The translations under genes and the position numbers were made by a program. Below are positions 13,637-61,632 of a stretch of 64,000 nt of DNA, in pieces. The notes beneath the pieces were generated by a model that worked only from the letters and a program-made list of their open reading frames with translations, was not told the origin of the DNA and did not search any database. The DNA is from Thermodesulfobacteriota bacterium. Its GTDB lineage: Bacteria > Desulfobacterota > Desulfobacteria > Desulfobacterales > JACKCP01. Where the stretch lies: positions 333-64,332 of the forward strand of contig JBNJDM010000003.1 of NCBI GenBank assembly GCA_051744925.1, written 5' to 3'. The stretch's first letter is position 1; each line of letters opens with the position of its first letter.

Positions 13637-15034
13637 TCAGTTTTTTCTGTATTCATCTGCATCAATATCATATCTTTTCATGATTTTTTGAAGTGCCTGA
13701 CGCTCAAGTCCAAGATTTCGTGCAGTTTTAGAAACATTTCCTGAAGTTTTTTCAAGGCTTTTTCCTATAACCTTCATATTAAATTCATAAAGATTTTTTT
13801 CCTTGGCCTCTTTATAGCTTAAATTTTCATAATCTAATAATTCAACCCCTGAAAATAATGCATTATCTTTTTTATAACCTGCATCTGCAGGATTTATAAC
13901 ATCATCTGAAGAATAAAGAATACCTCTTATGATAATATTTTCAAGTTCACGTATATTTCCCACCCATTTTTCTGATGATAAAATATCCATAAGTTCAGGA
14001 GATATTCTTTTTATTTCCTTGTTCATTTTATTGCAGTGCTTTTCAAGAAGATGTCCTGCAATGGCAGGGATATCTTTTTGTCTTTGTCTTAAAGGCGGCA
14101 TTTCAATGGAAACAACATTCAGCCTGTAATACAGGTCTTCCCTGAACAATCCTTTTTGCACCAGATCAAAAAGATTCTGGTTGGTTGAAGCTATTATTCT
14201 TGTATCTACATTAACAGATTCTGTATCTCCAAGAGGCTTGATCTGTTTATCCTGAAGAACCATTAAAAGCTTTGTCTGAATAGAAGGTGATATTTCTCCG
14301 ATTTCATCAAGAAATATGGTTCCTTTGTCAGCTTCCTGGAAAAGACCTTTTTTATTTTTCTGGGCATGAGTAAATGCACCTTTTTTATAACCAAACAATT
14401 CACTTTCAAGAATATTTTCAGGAATTGTAGGACAGTTTACTGTAACAAAATTCTCCTTTTTTCTTTCACTTAAAGAATGAATCGCTTTTGCAGCCATATT
14501 CTTTCCTGTACCGGATTCTCCGGTCAAAAGAACTGTTACATCGCTTGGAGCAACCATATGAAGGGTTTCAAAAATCTTTTTCATTGAAGGACTTGAACCT
14601 ACAATACCGCTTAAGGCCTCATCTTTGCTCCGGCTTTTTAAAAGCCTCTGATTTTCCTTTAAAAGCAAAGCCCTTTCCATGGCTTTGTTAAGGCGTACAA
14701 CCAGGGCATCATGATCAAAAGGCTTGGTTATAAAATCATAAGCCCCTTTTTTCATTGCATCTATTACAGTATCTATATCTCCGTATGCAGTCATCATAAC
14801 AACAGTTTGACCCGGCTTTTCCTCCTTAATGATTTCAAGCAGATCAAGACCGTTCATTCCAGGCATCCTGATATCTGTAAGTATAAGATCAAAATCTTTA
14901 CTTCTGATAAGCTTAAGAGCATTATCTATATCTGAAACAGTTTTTATATCTGCATTAAGTTCGGATGATAAACTCCTTTGCAGCAGCTTAAGCATATCAG
15001 GCTCATCATCAATAATTAAAACCGAATCACTCAT
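13637..15034 (-). CDS. Sigma54-dependent response regulator (NtrC/AtoC family enhancer-binding protein)
   Basis: 465 aa. Receiver domain (DLILTDIRMPGMNG), AAA+ domain with GESGTGK and the GAFTHA (GAFTGA-type) loop, and a C-terminal Fis-type HTH. Confidence 0.9.
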   Translation of the reverse strand: MSDSVLIIDDEPDMLKLLQRSLSSELNADIKTVSDIDNALKLIRSKDFDLILTDIRMPGMNGLDLLEIIKEEKPGQTVVMMTAYGDIDTVIDAMKKGAYDFITKPFDHDALVVRLNKAMERALLLKENQRLLKSRSKDEALSGIVGSSPSMKKIFETLHMVAPSDVTVLLTGESGTGKNMAAKAIHSLSERKKENFVTVNCPTIPENILESELFGYKKGAFTHAQKNKKGLFQEADKGTIFLDEIGEISPSIQTKLLMVLQDKQIKPLGDTESVNVDTRIIASTNQNLFDLVQKGLFREDLYYRLNVVSIEMPPLRQRQKDIPAIAGHLLEKHCNKMNKEIKRISPELMDILSSEKWVGNIRELENIIIRGILYSSDDVINPADAGYKKDNALFSGVELLDYENLSYKEAKEKNLYEFNMKVIGKSLEKTSGNVSKTARNLGLERQALQKIMKRYDIDADEYRKN

Positions 15035-16205
15035 TTTGATCTCCTGTTATGCATGTATTATCTGCAGGAAGATAAATTGAAAAAGTAGTACCTGAATTTT
15101 TTACACTTGTAACAGTAATATCACCTCCATGATTTTTAACAATACCATAGCTTACTGACAACCCAAGCCCTGTTCCTTTACCTGTAGGCTTTGTTGTAAA
15201 AAAAGGATCAAAAATTCTTGAAAGATTCTCTTTTTCTATACCTTCTCCTGTATCCTCAAGGTCTATTTTTATTTTCTCATTTTCAAGTGAAGTTTTAATA
15301 TAAAGATTCCCGTTAAAATTCATTGCATGATTTGCGTTCATTATAAGATTTATAAATACCTGCTTAATTTTTTCGGCATCTATACATATTTCAGGGATAT
15401 TATCTGAATATCTTTTTATTATATCAGTGTTATTAAATGCTGTATGCGACTTAACAAAACTAACTACATCATCAAGAATTTCATGAATATTATAAAGCTT
15501 TTTTTTCGGCTTTGAACTTCTGGAAAAACTTAAAAGATCTTCTACAATAACTTTGCAGTGCTTAACATGTTTTTCTATTATTTTTAAATCTTCATATTTC
15601 TGCGGGTCTTTTTCTGACCTTAAAAGAAGCTGATTATAACCAAGTATTATACCAAGCGGATTGTTTATTTCATGGGCAACTCCTGCAGAAAGTTCTCCGG
15701 TTGCAGCAAGTTTTTCAGCTTGTGCCATCTGTTTTTCAAGCAAAGTTCTTTGTTCTGCCTCTTTTCTCAGTTTTTCAGTTCTTTCTGCAACCCTTTGTTC
15801 AAGATTCTGATTAAGGGAGATAAGTTTACTATGAGTTATTTCAAGTTCTTTTTTATCATGCACAACCTGCATGTATATCTTCCATATCTGTCTGAAAAAT
15901 ATAGTTATCGAACCGACAAGAATAAATGCAAATGTATTTACAGATCCGGAAAAAGGCCTGATATCATTCCATATTTCAAGATAGCCATTAATAACAAGAG
16001 CCTGTTTTAGTATATGACCGGCAGATCGTGATACAGCAAAAATTACAAGACCGTAGCACACCCATACAAGGTAGCTTAAAATCACATTCTCACTTTCTTT
16101 ACTTCTTAAGCTTAAAGCTTTTTTCAAGCATAAAAAAGAAAGCAGAATCATTAAGACTGATCCTGTGACATCAACGAAAAGTACCGGGTAATATGTTATT
16201 TCCAT
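15027..16205 (-). CDS. Sensor histidine kinase with multi-TM N-terminus and no obvious periplasmic domain
   Basis: 392 aa. H-box AHEINNPL, N box NLIMNANHAM, G boxes DTGEGI and GTGLGL. Overlaps the RR gene by 8 nt. Confidence 0.9.
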   Translation of the reverse strand: MEITYYPVLFVDVTGSVLMILLSFLCLKKALSLRSKESENVILSYLVWVCYGLVIFAVSRSAGHILKQALVINGYLEIWNDIRPFSGSVNTFAFILVGSITIFFRQIWKIYMQVVHDKKELEITHSKLISLNQNLEQRVAERTEKLRKEAEQRTLLEKQMAQAEKLAATGELSAGVAHEINNPLGIILGYNQLLLRSEKDPQKYEDLKIIEKHVKHCKVIVEDLLSFSRSSKPKKKLYNIHEILDDVVSFVKSHTAFNNTDIIKRYSDNIPEICIDAEKIKQVFINLIMNANHAMNFNGNLYIKTSLENEKIKIDLEDTGEGIEKENLSRIFDPFFTTKPTGKGTGLGLSVSYGIVKNHGGDITVTSVKNSGTTFSIYLPADNTCITGDQNE

Positions 16206-19173: not shown

Positions 19174-19224
19174 TTTATTCTCCTTTATAAAAAAACCATT
19201 AAAATTTTATTGAAACCATAACAA

Positions 19225-19239
19225 AGCAATTGATGTGCC
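19225..19239 (-). promoter_or_regulatory. Sigma54 promoter, consensus TGGCAC-N5-TTGC, driving the TauE-like gene cluster
   Basis: Complement of gcaattgatgtgcca reads TGGCACATCAATTGC. The -12 GC lies 52 nt upstream of the ATG at 19173. Confidence 0.7.
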
Positions 19240-19430
19240 AGATTCAAGTTCAAAACCTACAACTAGTTAAACCACTGTTTTAAAAGGATATATAATTAAA
19301 AGCTTTTTCAGTACCAAAGAAAAGATATAAGAATTAAGATACAAATAGGTTAAATTTTATGCACATTAATCAATTCTTACTTTTTATAGCCTTATTTGCA
19401 AGGTTATAAAAATTGAAACTTTTTTTATGC

Positions 19431-19452
19431 TATGCATAATATTTTATGCATA
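19431..19452. promoter_or_regulatory. Two palindromic TATGCATA boxes (candidate enhancer/UAS for a sigma54 activator)
   Basis: TATGCATA at 19431-19438 and 19445-19452. A third near-copy TATGCAca lies at 19358-19365. All sit between two divergent sigma54 promoters. Confidence 0.45.
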
Positions 19453-19550
19453 CATATATAATAAAAGAGCTAAAACAAGGACTTTTACTGTCAAAAAGCC
19501 CAAAACTTAGCATAAACTAAAGTGTTTTGCTATTATTAAGGTATATTATC

Positions 19551-19566
19551 TGGCATAAAAATTGTA
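19551..19566 (+). promoter_or_regulatory. Sigma54-type promoter TGGCAT-N5-TTGTA upstream of the DUF169 gene
   Basis: GG and TG at the canonical -24/-12 spacing, 48 nt upstream of the ATG at 19614. The same variant hexamers occur at 42724. Confidence 0.55.
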
Positions 19567-19613
19567 TAGTATTTTAGGAATTTAAATTTTAATCAAATCC
19601 AAGGATTAATATA

Positions 19614-20408
19614 ATGAATACAGAAATGACATACACTAAAGCATTTGAAACTTTAATATGGAATTTCAGGCTCGATTTTGACCCTGTTGGCATTAAATTT
19701 GTTTTTGATGAATCAGAAATTGACAAACTGCCTATTACCCATACAGCTAAACCAAAGCTATCTTTCTGCCAGTATCTTGCAGCGGCAAGGTCAGCAAAAC
19801 ACTCTCTTTTTCTTAAACCAGGACAATGTGCGTGTAAAAATGCCCAGCCTGTTTTCGGCTTTAGATCTCTTGATAAAGAAACGGACTGTAAAAACCATAA
19901 AAAATATCTCCTGGATGATGATCTTTCATGGCAGGCTCCACAGGAAAAAGCAAGACTTGAGGAAGGCAGCTGCCATGGAATATATATGGCTCCTTTAAAT
20001 GAATTTGATAAAATTGATGCAGATCCTGATGTAGTATTTATGATGGTTGTTCCTTACCAGGCATATCATATTTTAAATGATTATATGGGTGCAATGCACA
20101 AACCGAATCTGTCTTTTTTTGCCACACCTAATTCAGCTGTATGTTCAGGAAGTGTTTATGCATACAAAAATAAGACTGCAAATATGAACACTATGTGTGC
20201 TGGTTCAAAAGCATCCGGAAAAACTGAAATGAACTATATGAATCTTTTTATTCCTGGTGATCAGATTCTTCAGACAGTTGAGCAGCTGGAAAAAAGAATT
20301 GAAGTAACAGGCGGCCCCTCCCTTCTTGGTGCTGGTGGACAACCATGGCCCGGACTTGATGTATGTTCAGGATGTCCGATAGTAAAATTTACTGAAGTTG
20401 AAAAATAA
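19614..20408 (+). CDS. DUF169 family protein
   Basis: 264 aa. Cys-rich pattern and the PVGIKF opening remembered for DUF169. Function unknown. Confidence 0.6.
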   Translation: MNTEMTYTKAFETLIWNFRLDFDPVGIKFVFDESEIDKLPITHTAKPKLSFCQYLAAARSAKHSLFLKPGQCACKNAQPVFGFRSLDKETDCKNHKKYLLDDDLSWQAPQEKARLEEGSCHGIYMAPLNEFDKIDADPDVVFMMVVPYQAYHILNDYMGAMHKPNLSFFATPNSAVCSGSVYAYKNKTANMNTMCAGSKASGKTEMNYMNLFIPGDQILQTVEQLEKRIEVTGGPSLLGAGGQPWPGLDVCSGCPIVKFTEVEK

Positions 20409-25434: not shown

Positions 25435-25920
25435 TTAAATCATAAAAAGTCTGTAAAATCTTCCGGCAGATCTTACAATCATAAGAAAGCCGGAAACAGG
25501 AAATATCATATAAATCCAGGCCATTGGGATTTTAAGTATAATTGTTTTCTGATTTGTCATTTTCATAAGCTCTATAAGCTCTGCTCCGAACTTAATTAAA
25601 CAGATTGAAAAAACAACAGTTGCAACAAGAGCCAGAATTTCAAAAAATTTTTCAGATTTCGGGAAAAACTGAACAACTGCATCAATTTTTATCTGAGAAC
25701 TGTTTTTTACTGCAACTGAAGCGCCTATAAAAGTAGTATAAATTATTACAATCCTTACAAGTTCTTCTGACCAGGCAAGTGTATATGAAAACCCGTATCT
25801 TAAAACAACATTCATAAAAAGACTTATAAGTGCAATTATTACACTTGCAAAAAGAGTAAACTCTTCAAAAAATGTTAACGCTTTTTCAAAACCGCGGACT
25901 GTTTTTTTAAAATAATACAA
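25435..25920 (-). CDS. dctQ: TRAP transporter small permease
   Basis: 161 aa, 4 TM, positioned between dctP and dctM. Confidence 0.85.
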   Translation of the reverse strand: MYYFKKTVRGFEKALTFFEEFTLFASVIIALISLFMNVVLRYGFSYTLAWSEELVRIVIIYTTFIGASVAVKNSSQIKIDAVVQFFPKSEKFFEILALVATVVFSICLIKFGAELIELMKMTNQKTIILKIPMAWIYMIFPVSGFLMIVRSAGRFYRLFMI

Positions 25921-41885: not shown

Positions 41886-42572
41886 ATGATCAAAGATATT
41901 AATAATGAATTAACAAATCATATTTTTTCTGTTCTTAACTCTGATATAAAATATTTCCTTGATATCGGATGCGGTGATGGGGATTTAACCGCAAAAATAT
42001 CAGAAAAATGCAGATTCACAGCTGGTATAGAACCTGATTTTAAAAAAATTAGTCATACAAACAAAAAATCCTCAGACAAACTTTTTTTTCTTGTTAATAC
42101 AGGTACAGAACTTTCATTTAATGACTCATCATTTGATATGGTTTTATTTTGTCAGTCTCTTCATCATATTCCTTCTGACATGCAAAATTATGCCCTTAAA
42201 GAGGCAGACAGAGTTCTTAAAAAAAACGGAATTATGCTTATAATTGAACCTTTGTACAACACAGGACTTTACGGAGAACTTGTTGCTCTTCTGAATAATG
42301 AAAAAGAACTTAAAGCAAATGCACTCAAGGAAACAAAAAAACTTGAAAAACAAAGCTACACCCCTGTTTTTGAAAAACAGCTTAAAATAGATTTTCTCAT
42401 AAACGGATTTGATGATTTTTATAATTCCAAAGTAGAAAACAAACCGGGTATTAACTGGAATAAAAATATTGAATCAGATGCAAAAAAAATTATTGCAAAA
42501 GGAGAGAAAAAAAATAACGGCAAAATTATAATCGACTATTTTATCAATTCTTTTTGTTTTAAAAAAAATTAA
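41886..42572 (+). CDS. Class I SAM-dependent methyltransferase
   Basis: 228 aa. Motif I LDIGCGDG. RBS AGGAG. Confidence 0.75.
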   Translation: MIKDINNELTNHIFSVLNSDIKYFLDIGCGDGDLTAKISEKCRFTAGIEPDFKKISHTNKKSSDKLFFLVNTGTELSFNDSSFDMVLFCQSLHHIPSDMQNYALKEADRVLKKNGIMLIIEPLYNTGLYGELVALLNNEKELKANALKETKKLEKQSYTPVFEKQLKIDFLINGFDDFYNSKVENKPGINWNKNIESDAKKIIAKGEKKNNGKIIIDYFINSFCFKKN

Positions 42573-42613
42573 ATTTTTTTTAAAATTGTGCTTCTTGTTT
42601 AAATTAAAATGTA

Positions 42614-42646
42614 GTGTAATTATTACACATAGGGTAATAATTACCC
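42614..42646. promoter_or_regulatory. Tandem 15-bp palindromes GTGTAAT-t-ATTACAC and GGGTAAT-a-ATTACCC (candidate enhancer/UAS)
   Basis: Both are perfect (42614-42628 and 42632-42646). Centred about 95 bp upstream of the sigma54 -24 element at 42725. Confidence 0.45.
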
Positions 42647-42723
42647 GCAAAAAACTGTAACAAAAATACTTAGTACAAAACATTAAATTTTATTTTTAGT
42701 TATATTTCAAGAATTTATAGACA

Positions 42724-42739
42724 TGGCATAAAATTTGTA
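42724..42739 (+). promoter_or_regulatory. Sigma54-type promoter TGGCAT-N5-TTGTA with no downstream ORF
   Basis: Same hexamers and spacing as the element at 19551. Confidence 0.5.
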
Positions 42740-42749
42740 TTATATAGTA

Positions 42750-42864
42750 CAAATGGTTAAATAATTATCAGCTTAAGCAGCATAATAAAAAGCAGATAAG
42801 CAAATTTTTCATTGTTCTCCTTCTTAAAGACCCCCTGATGAAAATCAGGGGGTTATTTTTTTTT
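42750..42864 (+). ncRNA. Candidate sigma54-dependent small RNA (~115 nt; 5' end estimated)
   Basis: Bounded by the sigma54 promoter and an intrinsic terminator. The only ORF is ATGGTTAAATAA. Contains the CU-rich tract TTCTCCTTCTT (42815-42825). Confidence 0.35.
42831..42864 (+). terminator. Intrinsic terminator
   Basis: CCCCCTGAT-gaaa-ATCAGGGGG, a 9-bp perfect stem with a GAAA loop, followed by TTATTTTTTTTT. Confidence 0.8.
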
Positions 42865-43055
42865 AAAAAATTATTTAAAAAAAACTTTTTTTTTAAAATA
42901 AAAACAAGTATAGTATTTAAAATTAATAACAGAAAACAATATTTGTTTTCTAAAGAAGGGTTCTCTCCTAAGATCTAATCTTAATAATAAATTAGAATTT
43001 TCTTAAGAATGTAATCCAGCAACAATCAAAATGTAATAATTTAAGGAAAAAGTTA

Positions 43056-43256
43056 ATGGCAAACGGAATTGTAAAGTGGTTCAACGAGAGTAAAGGTTAT
43101 GGTTTTATTGAGCAGGAAGAAGGATCAGATGTTTTTGTTCACCATACAGGAATAAACATGGACGGATTTAAGACTCTTGCAGAAGGTCAGAGAGTAGTAT
43201 TTGACGTTGCAGAGGGTCCAAAAGGAAAAAATGCTGTAAATGTAACTCCTCAGTAG
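43056..43256 (+). CDS. cspA: Cold-shock protein (CspA family)
   Basis: 66 aa with [12 protein letters not shown] and VFVHH RNP motifs. Confidence 0.95.
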
Positions 43257-46266: not shown

Positions 46267-48153
46267 TTAAAAAACAAAAGACCTTTCAACAATATCCCTT
46301 GTTCTTCTTATAATTTTTTCATAATAACTGCTGTTTCTCTGGAGATAAAATTCTATCTGAAAATTCTGGTTTTCATCTTTTATCTGCTTTAATTTTTTCT
46401 GAAGCCCGTACGGAGAATTTATCCTGGTTACAAAAAGTTCTCCCCAGGTTGTTTTATAAATAAGTGCAAAATTGTTAATATTTTTTTCATAATGAACCTC
46501 CTCAAAACTTACAACAATAAAAACTTTCTGAATTCTTTCTTTTTTAAGATAAAACAAAGGTGAATTATCAAGAACATCGCATCTTCCAAGAAAATCCTTG
46601 AGTTTTAAAGAAAGATTAATAATTTCCTGAAGGCTTACACTGGTAGGATTCGGCTCCATTCTTATTCTTCCGACTTTAAAAAGATCATTCCACACAGTAA
46701 AGGCCGCAGCCCTTACTATATCGGCACCTTTAAAAAGAGGCACAGAGCGGTCATTGCCTGCAAATACTTTCCAGACCTTATCTTCATAAACAAAAGTGAT
46801 ATCCAAAAGATTAAACTGTTCAACAGGTTTCGGGACAAGATTGACCTTATTTTTTTTCTTTTGATAAATTGAGGCAATTTTTCTGCCCAGAACTGTCAAA
46901 TCTCTTTTATTTATATGGGCATTCTGCCTGCCTGCTGATGAAATTATTTTATAAAAACCAAAAAGCTCCTGAACAAGTCTTTTCCCAAGCTGTATCTGAG
47001 TTGCCATATCCCAGTTATTAAAGTTTGAAAGATGGAACTGAACATCTCTTGGTATGCCTGAATTTTTTAAAAATCTGTTTACAAGATCTTTTTTAAGCTG
47101 ATTTTTTTCCACTACCTTCATGTTGCATCTTAGAAAAAAACATTCTTTTAAAAATGAGAGCCTTGCTTCATCAAGTCTTGAACTAAAGCTTTTCATAATA
47201 AGGTCAACAGTAAATGTCATGGGATCAATAAAGTCATTGTTCTTTGATTTTAAAATTTCCTCTCTGAAAATATCTGCGGCAAGACGTCTTTGGGAATCTT
47301 CTATATGCCTGTTAAGCAAAGCCATCTTAATTACTGATTTGAGCGGACTTCCAAGAGCTTTTTGAAGCTGCCACAGTGAAGCTCCCAGAAATTCCTCTGA
47401 TTTAATCTGAGGAAGATCACCAAAATCTATATATTCATATCCTCCTGATATTCCGGAGCTTATTTTCTGGTAAGTAGATTCATAATCCAGCTTTTTATTG
47501 CTGTCATAACATACCCACCAGAAAGGAGTTTTACCCATAATCACAAGAGTTGTTCTGTAAAACTCCTCCATAAGAATATTTTTTTGGGCAGAGCCTGAAC
47601 TTTCCTTGTCAAGTTTTCCAAAGTATCCGTTTTTGACATCATTAATATCTGAAATAAAAAAATAAAGTGGAATTTTACAGTTTGCATCAAACCAGTCTTT
47701 TATAAGGTTGATTTTTTCTGTAAGATACTGATGATTTTTTCTGCCCATTTTCTTAAAATCACCGCATACCCAGATATCACAGTCCGAATAAGCTGTCTGT
47801 GCAATACTTCCTATGCTTCCGATTGTATAAATCCCGTCAAGTACAAACAAATCCTTGTTTTTAAGGTAGAGCTGACCGGATTCTTCAATTTTGAACATTT
47901 TTTTAAATACAGGTTCTTTTTTTTTAATTTCAAAAGAATTATCAATACCAAAAACCTTGAAAGAGCCCTGCATTTCAGGAACAAACCCTGGACATTTTTT
48001 ATGATTTATGCTTAATAACCACGGGAGAAGATAAAGAATTTGTATACTCTCTTTAGGAGAAATTTCTCTAAACAGAGCTTTCCTTTTCTCATTATATAAA
48101 TTGAATATACTATTGTTTCTTGAAATACTTTTTTCGAGACTTATTTGAGACAT
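46267..48153 (-). CDS. cyaA: Class I adenylate cyclase (CyaA-type catalytic region, short form)
   Basis: About 628 aa from the ATG at 48153 (the track begins at an upstream TTG, 48159). GSIGSIAQTAYSDCDIWVC and EEFLGASLWQLQKALGSPLKSVIKMALL match, from memory, E. coli CyaA GSTSSVGQSCSSDLDIWVC and [28 protein letters not shown]. Confidence 0.8.
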   Translation of the reverse strand: MSQISLEKSISRNNSIFNLYNEKRKALFREISPKESIQILYLLPWLLSINHKKCPGFVPEMQGSFKVFGIDNSFEIKKKEPVFKKMFKIEESGQLYLKNKDLFVLDGIYTIGSIGSIAQTAYSDCDIWVCGDFKKMGRKNHQYLTEKINLIKDWFDANCKIPLYFFISDINDVKNGYFGKLDKESSGSAQKNILMEEFYRTTLVIMGKTPFWWVCYDSNKKLDYESTYQKISSGISGGYEYIDFGDLPQIKSEEFLGASLWQLQKALGSPLKSVIKMALLNRHIEDSQRRLAADIFREEILKSKNNDFIDPMTFTVDLIMKSFSSRLDEARLSFLKECFFLRCNMKVVEKNQLKKDLVNRFLKNSGIPRDVQFHLSNFNNWDMATQIQLGKRLVQELFGFYKIISSAGRQNAHINKRDLTVLGRKIASIYQKKKNKVNLVPKPVEQFNLLDITFVYEDKVWKVFAGNDRSVPLFKGADIVRAAAFTVWNDLFKVGRIRMEPNPTSVSLQEIINLSLKLKDFLGRCDVLDNSPLFYLKKERIQKVFIVVSFEEVHYEKNINNFALIYKTTWGELFVTRINSPYGLQKKLKQIKDENQNFQIEFYLQRNSSYYEKIIRRTRDIVERSFVF

Positions 48154-48364
48154 GGCCAATAACCGTATTAACTGTCATAAATGTGAGTACTACTACGTAA
48201 CCTGGGACAACCAGCATCCGCATGGGTGCAGAGCTCTGGGCTTTAAAAGTGCAACTATGCCTTCTATTGTTGTTTTTCAAAGTTCCGGATCAAAATGCAG
48301 ATTTTATTCCCCTAAAAACAGCAGAAAAAACAAAAACTCAGGGAAAAATAAAATTATAGTTTAG
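48152..48364 (+). CDS. Small 4-Cys protein (70 aa) with Lys/Asn-rich tail
   Basis: ORF track: MANNRINCHKCEYYYVTWDNQHPHGCRALGFKSATMPSIVVFQSSGSKCRFYSPK... Cys at 8, 11, 26 and 49. Locally higher G+C than its flanks. Antisense between two minus-strand genes, so coding status is uncertain. Confidence 0.45.
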   Translation: MANNRINCHKCEYYYVTWDNQHPHGCRALGFKSATMPSIVVFQSSGSKCRFYSPKNSRKNKNSGKNKIIV

Positions 48365-61317: not shown

Positions 61318-61632
61318 TTATGCCTTCTCCATTGAACTTTTTAATGGAAATCCGTTGCTCCTGGCAAGGGATGTTACTGTCTCTACTTTGGTTTCGGCCA
61401 GTTCAAAAGGATAAACTCCGCATATACCGACCCCTTTTTTATGAACATTGAGCATAATCTGCTCTGCTTCAGATTCGGACTTATGAAAAACACTTATAAG
61501 AACATCAATAACAAAGTCCATTGTTGTATAATCGTCATTATGCAGAAGTACTTTATATAAAGGAGGTTCCTTAGTTTTATCCGAGATGTCAGATACTACC
61601 TCCTGATCTGTACCCGGATTTAATATAGCCAT
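61318..61632 (-). CDS. clpS: ClpS adaptor (N-end rule)
   Basis: 104 aa with YKVLLHNDDYTTMDFV and HKKGVGICGV. Confidence 0.95.
   Translation of the reverse strand: MAILNPGTDQEVVSDISDKTKEPPLYKVLLHNDDYTTMDFVIDVLISVFHKSESEAEQIMLNVHKKGVGICGVYPFELAETKVETVTSLARSNGFPLKSSMEKA

Follow-up and report, generated by a model that had tools for sequence, protein, structure and literature searches.

The window analysed here is a 64,000-nucleotide (64-kb) stretch of contig JBNJDM010000003.1 from a Thermodesulfobacteriota bacterium. Between a methyltransferase gene (41886-42572) and the cold-shock gene cspA it carries an intergenic unit, which an initial annotation made from the letters alone had read as a sigma54-dependent small RNA gene with five features: a pair of palindromes, a promoter of sigma54 geometry, a following stretch without any long open reading frame (ORF), a CU-rich tract and a strong terminator. 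All five features are found where that annotation had placed them, and their coordinates are listed in Table 1 together with those of further elements. The reading as a sigma54-type small RNA is also supported by the comparison with relatives, since eight sequence variants of the unit all keep the promoter, the CU tract and the terminator, with unchanged distances between them.

Table 1. Features of the intergenic unit and of the adjoining cspA gene, in window coordinates.
Feature	Coordinates	Strand	Basis or remark
Palindrome 1, GTGTAATtATTACAC, perfect 15 bp, candidate activator (enhancer-binding protein) site	42614-42628	.	~128 bp upstream of predicted start
Palindrome 2, GGGTAATaATTACCC, perfect 15 bp	42632-42646	.	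~110 bp upstream of predicted start
Sigma54-type -24/-12 promoter, TGGCAT-AAAAT-TTGTA	42724-42739	+	Motif scan, conservation across clades
Predicted small RNA, ~115 nt	42750-42864	+	Start inferred from usual distance to -12 element
5' stem-loop: 9 bp, 1x1 internal loop, 15-nt apical loop	42765-42799	+	Folding
Unpaired conserved 23-mer UUUUUCAUUGUUCUCCUUCUUAA, candidate seed	42805-42827	+	Conservation, partition function
CU tract UUCUCCUUCUU	42815-42825	+	Sequence
Intrinsic terminator: 11-bp stem, GAAA loop, then A + U9	42829-42864 (hairpin 42829-42854)	+	Terminator scan
cspA context (outside the RNA): -10 TATAGT 42909-42914, 5' untranslated region (UTR) ~135 nt, coding sequence 43056-43256	42909-43256	+	Conservation

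The methyltransferase encoded upstream of the unit has a 100% identical counterpart in a Thermodesulfobacteriota metagenome-assembled genome, and its relatives are named Desulforegulaceae. An exact look-up had given no record of this methyltransferase. Methyltransferase homologues of 83-84% and 49-52% identity were used for the contig comparison, and the intergenic alignment of the unit was extended with the homologues at loci L020/L021, L035 and L037, the last two of which were found through homologues of the NIL-ferredoxin. The unit is represented by eight distinct sequence variants (the window and seven others) in about six clades of related uncultured Desulforegulaceae-like bacteria, and in all eight it is single-copy and directly upstream of cspA. 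The flanking methyltransferase is only 50-84% identical across the clades, while the parts of the unit keep their fixed spacing. Since the unit is conserved in relatives, it is more than a chance arrangement of motifs. The shared gene order consists of the methyltransferase, a gap of about 480-540 bp, cspA, NIL-ferredoxin, mnmA and a radical-SAM methylthiotransferase-like gene (UPF0004 + Radical_SAM), and L035 has the same order as the window. The most divergent locus, L037, is without the methyltransferase and keeps both the unit and cspA; its nearest upstream gene encodes a DUF2339 protein and ends about 500 bp before the promoter. Two other NIL-ferredoxin loci, L036 and L041 (Desulfonema ishimotonii), have no adjacent cspA, and the unit is also absent from them. 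At the locus of methyltransferase homologue P0008 (L019) there is neither synteny nor the unit, and a search of genome contigs with MnmA gave only distant relatives (34-40% identity).

The sigma54 geometry claimed for the promoter at 42724-42739 is present, and the TGGCA and TG.A positions are kept in all clades. In the 64-kb window, the pattern TGGCAY-N5-TTGYW occurs four times against 0.25 expected, a 16-fold enrichment that no shuffled sequence reached, and three of the four matches lie between genes in the proper orientation. The pattern TGGCAY-N5-WTGYA has no match in the fetched loci other than the promoter of the unit. The promoter block TATAGACATGGCAY-N5-TTGTAWTATA is almost invariant in seven variants, and when six clade representatives are anchored on the GG, the invariant columns are TGGCA-N7-TG-N-A-N-TATA with a variable spacer. 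The element TATAGACA, which precedes the promoter motif in the other variants, is lost in L037, and the promoter of L037 reads TGGCAC-ACTAC-ATGCA, which is the canonical GG-N10-GC of sigma54. The resemblance that had been noted to an element in front of the DUF169 gene was also confirmed, as a near-identical motif (TGGCATAAAAATTGTA) lies at 19551-19566 on the plus strand and faces that gene.

The intergenic region 19174-19613 in fact holds two sigma54-type promoters in opposite directions, the other of which (TGGCACATCAATTGCT, 19225-19240, minus strand) points towards the gene of a TauE/TSUP transporter. TSUP transporters are among the reported sigma54 targets in Desulfovibrio (PMC4641369). 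A third match, TGGCATTAAATTTGTT (19688-19703), lies inside the annotated DUF169 ORF, so it may reflect a promoter within the gene or a start codon annotated at the wrong place.

The transcripts predicted at the homologous loci are 114-135 nt long (for example, L016:4908-5040, L020:2364-2493, L035 about 2313-2447 and L037 about 1340-1465), and the folding z-score of the small RNA predicted in the window is -3.7. The 5' half of the transcript is unalignable between clades, and each version folds a hairpin at the same place. With RNAalifold, an 11-bp helix was recovered from five divergent homologues, in which four of the 11 pairs carry compensatory changes. In L016, L020 and L035 the 5' hairpin has the apical loop AUGGCGAGA, and in L037 it has AUGAUGAUA, on stems that differ, and this loop could be a second interaction site; the 15-nt apical loop of the window's clade is unrelated to either. 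Outside the window's clade, the linker between the hairpin and the 23-mer holds a second CU-rich motif, read as AUCCUUAA, GCCCUUAU, ACCUUUAC and GCCUCCAA among L016, L020, L035, L009 and L037. It is partly paired with AAGG(G)AU near the 5' end in L016, L020 and L035, and it may be a masked second element complementary to the Shine-Dalgarno (SD) sequence.

No ORF is conserved on either strand across the homologues. The initial annotation had found nothing longer than ATG-GTT-AAA-TAA after the promoter, and this holds for plus-strand positions 42750-42837, where that frame (MVK and a stop) is the sole one initiated by ATG. A low-complexity ORF of 46 codons starts in the terminator loop at 42838; the relatives have other sequences in this loop, so the ORF is not conserved. 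In L016, L020 and L035, the conserved apical loop starts mini-ORFs of 5-35 codons (MAR...), which are not conserved themselves. The mini-ORFs of the plus strand (MVK and MAR...) and the 46-codon ORF were all considered as genes and rejected, as none is conserved.

At the 3' end, the strong terminator described earlier is present, with a stem of 11 bp that contains six G-C pairs. The terminator scan gave three terminator-like sites in 1.7 kb, compared with 0.3 expected. The stem CCCCCTGA/TCAGGGGG (CCCCCUGA/UCAGGGGG) is invariant apart from a compensatory change from A-U to G-C in L037, while the loop varies, and the hairpin is followed by a U-run on the plus strand only. There is no other terminator between the stop codon of the methyltransferase gene (42572) and 42829, so the methyltransferase mRNA probably ends at the terminator of the small RNA.

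Between the hairpin and the terminator lies a conserved part of the transcript, a 23-mer (TTTTTCATTGTTCTCCTTCTTAA) that is 74% pyrimidine and identical in seven of the eight variants. The partition function predicts an unpaired CU core for all homologues (probability 0.67-0.96). The CU tract at 42815-42825 had been noted before for its complementarity to a ribosome binding site. That complementarity is there, but the tract forms just a part of the 23-nt stretch, which also covers an AUG and the first codons. The whole 23-mer is the exact complement of UUAAGAAGGAGAACAAUGAAAAA, that is, of an ideal ribosome binding site (AAGGAG) with AUG and AAAAA after a short spacer. The diverged L037 version (AAATCATCATCCTTACTCCTTA) retains UCAU and CUCCUU and is still complementary to AAGGAG-N5-AUG, and for this reason the anti-SD part and the anti-AUG part both seem to be under selection. 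Metagenomes were also scanned with the 20-mer TTCATTGTTCTCCTTCTTAA, and the 13 loci obtained were three copies of the small RNA unit and 10 unrelated genes. All of the 10 unrelated matches are real gene starts on the opposite strand, with SD and ATG; the 23-mer is therefore complementary to a genuine translation initiation region. From its sequence, it would be an element directed against the translation initiation region and not against the SD alone.

Taken together, the two separated promoter boxes, the hairpin conserved in structure only, the conserved single-stranded stretch and the terminator give the signature of a small RNA gene, and we consider it very probable that the unit is a real one.

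The 23-mer was compared with the start regions of 72 ORFs in the window. The mean duplex energy was -9.1 kcal/mol, against -7.2 kcal/mol for shuffled seeds, none of 100 of which was as good as the real seed, and -8.0 kcal/mol for seeds in which CUCCUU alone was kept, four of 100 of which were as good. Pairing at -12 kcal/mol or below was found for 22% of the start regions and for 5% of internal windows. As the seed pairs better with starts, the 23-mer resembles the complement of the consensus start region in this organism, AAAGGA...AUGAAAAAA. Neither a complement nor a second copy of the 23-mer occurs in the window (up to 3 mismatches) or in the related loci (up to 4-5 mismatches). The exact 20-mer scan gave no target in the source metagenomes, only unrelated gene starts of other organisms. 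The window covers about 2% of a genome, so the true target probably lies outside it. If the reading as a seed is true, the target of the L037 type is expected to have a start close to AAGGAGUAAGGAUGAUGA.

The neighbouring cspA gene was examined as well. A TAnnnT hexamer after the small RNA terminator is conserved in all clades, and the cspA leader (window 42865-43055) is strongly conserved across all of them. Because this hexamer and a leader of about 135 nt follow the terminator, cspA most likely has its own promoter. The Rfam cspA thermoregulator gave no match in 42500-43100 up to E = 10, and the leader may therefore be a separate cold-sensing leader. The leader was considered as a target of the 23-mer and rejected, as its pairing energies do not surpass those obtained with shuffled seeds and the sites predicted in it lack conservation. 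Further downstream, a class I adenylate cyclase gene (window 46267-48159, minus strand) ends the conserved block from cspA to the methylthiotransferase-like gene in all relatives, with the same position in L005, L009, L016 and L035.

The explanation that we favour is that the unit is an independently transcribed, non-coding and trans-acting small RNA gene (42750-42864, plus strand) of a new family. An enhancer-binding protein bound upstream would activate RNA polymerase with sigma54 at TGGCAT-N5-TTGTA, with the palindromes at 42614-42646 as candidate binding sites, and transcription would start close to the position given in Table 1. The transcript would fold into the 5' hairpin, an unpaired A/U-rich linker and the strong terminator with its U-tail. 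This layout is typical of Hfq-type small RNAs, from which we infer that Hfq may be involved. The unpaired 23-mer would then pair with the SD, the AUG and the first codons of at least one mRNA, by which binding of the 30S subunit would be blocked and translation repressed. We estimate the probability of this full mechanism, with sigma54 and an activator and with base pairing at translation start regions, as about 0.6. The sigma54 dependence of transcription, when taken as a separate part and judged on the promoter sequences, is likely.

Several observations weigh against this explanation. At the promoter, the -12 element is TTGTA (GT) and not TTGCA (GC) in seven of the eight variants, and the promoter is overlapped by a sigma70-like -10, TAWTAT (CAATAT in L037) or TATAnn, which is just as well conserved and would place the transcription start at almost the same position. 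Upstream, the core GTAAT-N-ATTAC of the palindromes occurs three times in the window against 0.07 expected, and both palindromes are present as the initial annotation described them. Their conservation beyond the closest clade fails, however. Palindrome 1 is identical in the window, L005 and L008, which form the closest clade, and is absent as such from the other clades; palindrome 2 is perfect in the window only, with GTATAACAATTACCC and GTATAACAATTATCC in L005 and L008. The other clades carry different palindromes, or a loose GTA-N5-TAC core (L009, L016) at -130 to -190. Since conservation is limited to the closest clade for one palindrome and to the window for the other, their proposed role as enhancer sites is tentative. 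There is no activator gene among the neighbours of the unit; the window does encode an NtrC-type activator and a kinase at 13637-16205. In the 64 kb of the window, about 2% of a genome, rpoN was not seen, and a motif search of the six-frame translation gave no match to Hfq. On the side of the targets, the best candidate in the window is the start of clpS (UUAGGAAGGAAGAACUAUG), which is borderline at -19.1 kcal/mol (p about 0.05 under both null models). Also, 23 identical nucleotides exceed what a simple seed needs, and the strict linkage to cspA is unexplained by a purely trans-acting role.

Two side observations concern these sites. A sequence one base off palindrome 1, GTGCAATTATTACAC (25830-25844), lies inside the ORF 25435-25920 near its 5' end, and it is either a chance occurrence or a second site for the DNA-binding protein of palindrome 1. 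The clpS gene (61318-61632, minus strand) is the first gene of a clpS-clpA pair.

The points on the promoter raise the question of whether the same small RNA might be made from a housekeeping sigma70 promoter, with TGGCA...TG either incidental or a second, overlapping promoter. Two arrangements are conceivable, namely a -35 TAGACA with 17 bp to TATAnA, or a weak -35 with TAWTAT as the -10. TAGACA (5/6 to consensus) is shared by seven of the eight variants, A2 and T6 of TAWTAT (CAATAT in L037) are present in every variant, and TATA is invariant, with a perfect TATAAT in L037; a consensus scan also lists TTTATA-18-TATTAT at 42714-42743. However, no single frame joins a good -35 to a good -10, for TAGACA goes with TATAnA, which is without the critical final T, and TAWTAT goes with TTATAG (2/6). 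In this AT-rich DNA, sigma70-like consensus matches are found at chance level (10 against 9.6 expected). Moreover, L037 drops TAGACA but retains TGGCA and has a better -12, with GC, and a sigma70 promoter leaves unexplained why the distance of TGGCA from TG is exactly 10 bp in every clade. We therefore regard a sigma70 origin as unlikely. The proposal that there is no separate gene at all, and that the terminator simply ends the methyltransferase mRNA, agrees with the fact that read-through from the methyltransferase probably does end here, with no terminator between 42572 and 42829. The initial annotation had itself considered this, and it was not borne out. The unit is not merely a 3' UTR because it persists in L037, where the methyltransferase is missing and about 500 bp separate the nearest upstream gene from the promoter, and a 3' UTR does not account for the two-box promoter with its variable spacer or for the conserved 23-mer. 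This makes it very improbable. Even harder to credit is a minus-strand gene for a small protein, or for a type I toxin that would be countered by the plus-strand RNA as antitoxin. Read on the opposite strand, the 23-mer gives a perfect SD and ATG, and AAGGAG-AACA-ATG is followed in the window by a hydrophobic ORF of 14 codons (MKNLLICFLLCCLS). This ORF has only three codons in L005 and L008, and 24, 31 and 24 unrelated codons in L009, L016 and L020; the U-run of the hairpin, moreover, is on the plus strand only. A type I toxin-antitoxin system was rejected, since the antisense ORF ranges from 3 to 31 codons and is unrelated between the homologues.

The linkage to cspA suggests another possibility, in which the unit belongs to the cspA leader and transcripts from the sigma54 promoter end at a conditional terminator. 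This terminator would be overridden, for example, by cold-shock proteins on the pyrimidine-rich 23-mer, and the short RNA would be an attenuation product or a decoy for these proteins. Proteins with a cold-shock domain bind preferentially to U/C-rich single strands and can act as antiterminators, and 74% of the 23-mer is pyrimidine. The unit always immediately precedes cspA, also where another gene lies on its upstream side, and in a computational survey csp genes (COG1278) were over-represented downstream of predicted sigma54 promoters (PMC12316311). On the other hand, the terminator is strong (an 11-bp stem and U9), and the conserved TAnnnT after it would give cspA a -10 of its own and a typical long 5' UTR. 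No conserved antiterminator pairing is visible across the clades, and an attenuator with an alternative antiterminator helix was rejected as inconsistent between them. The seed pairs with the leader no better than shuffled seeds do, and L037 keeps CAU and CUCCUU at a spacing like that of a translation start, which a binding site for cold-shock proteins would not need. Such a leader is thus quite unlikely. The finding also has a consequence for computational surveys of the sigma54 regulon, where promoters are assigned to the next ORF: a sigma54 promoter that is predicted "upstream of cspA" may be that of an RNA gene lying in between. A different view of the 23-mer is that it is a generic mimic, with CUCCUU like the anti-SD of 16S rRNA and CAU, at the right distance from it, matching the anticodon of the initiator tRNA, and that the RNA is a global translation brake coupled to cspA. 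An enhancer-dependent stress signal would in that case produce an RNA that masks strong start regions genome-wide, and that cooperates with the neighbouring cold-shock protein or titrates it. We hold this to be improbable.

As for the wider meaning of the favoured small RNA, it would add a conserved regulatory RNA family to the poorly studied uncultured Desulforegulaceae-like Thermodesulfobacteriota. The family offers clear boundaries, a testable promoter type and an unusually long conserved interaction surface, and it would extend enhancer-dependent small RNAs beyond Proteobacteria and Desulfovibrio. The linkage to cspA and the conservation over 23 nt may indicate that sigma54 signalling, translation control and the response to cold shock are connected.

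When compared with the known families in Rfam 15, neither the whole window nor the seven homologous loci gave any match at the gathering score. Below threshold (E up to 10) there are 28 matches, and neither Qrr nor GlmY/GlmZ is among them, which agrees with the earlier remark that the sequence was not recognised as any of these RNAs. The best of the sub-threshold matches are psRNA14 (29.6 bits against 60) and PyrR (28.6 against 54), in which the terminator alone was aligned.

The closest known systems by taxon are found in Desulfovibrio. Dv_sRNA2 is a target of the response regulator DVU0679 (PMC3333781), the sigma54 regulome of D. vulgaris includes four non-coding RNAs (PMC4641369), and two small RNAs with RpoN promoters were mapped in D. 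alaskensis G20 (PMC4045070). The present unit belongs to the same phylum, and its predicted layout is like theirs, with a -24/-12 promoter and a candidate activator site before a short ORF-less transcript. It differs in order and family, being Desulforegulaceae-like, and an activator gene adjoins Dv_sRNA2 whereas none is adjacent here; this separation is based on the descriptions of the Desulfovibrio RNAs and not on their sequences.

Among the better known examples, Qrr1-4 of Vibrio and GlmY/GlmZ of enterobacteria are enhancer-dependent sigma54 RNAs of about 100-200 nt with an intrinsic terminator, and Qrr base-pairs at translation start regions with Hfq. The taxon, the seed and the context upstream of cspA are different here, the unit is single-copy, and there is no match in sequence or structure. 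In RsaE/RoxS of Firmicutes, an unpaired pyrimidine-rich anti-SD motif blocks translation, and NfeR1 of Sinorhizobium resembles the unit in having such a motif. However, these RNAs carry short, repeated C-rich motifs, often in loops, while the unit has one continuous 23-nt stretch of unrelated sequence. MicL and DapZ of enterobacteria are small RNAs embedded in a 3' UTR with their own promoter. Like them, the unit probably has a terminator common to the small RNA and the upstream mRNA; unlike them, it has its promoter in the intergenic spacer and not in the upstream coding sequence, and it persists without that gene in L037. Judged by these sequence comparisons, with the Desulfovibrio members compared by description, the unit appears to be a new family within the known class of sigma54-dependent small RNAs, and what makes it distinctive is the conserved 23-nt stretch complementary to a start region together with its fixed place upstream of cspA.

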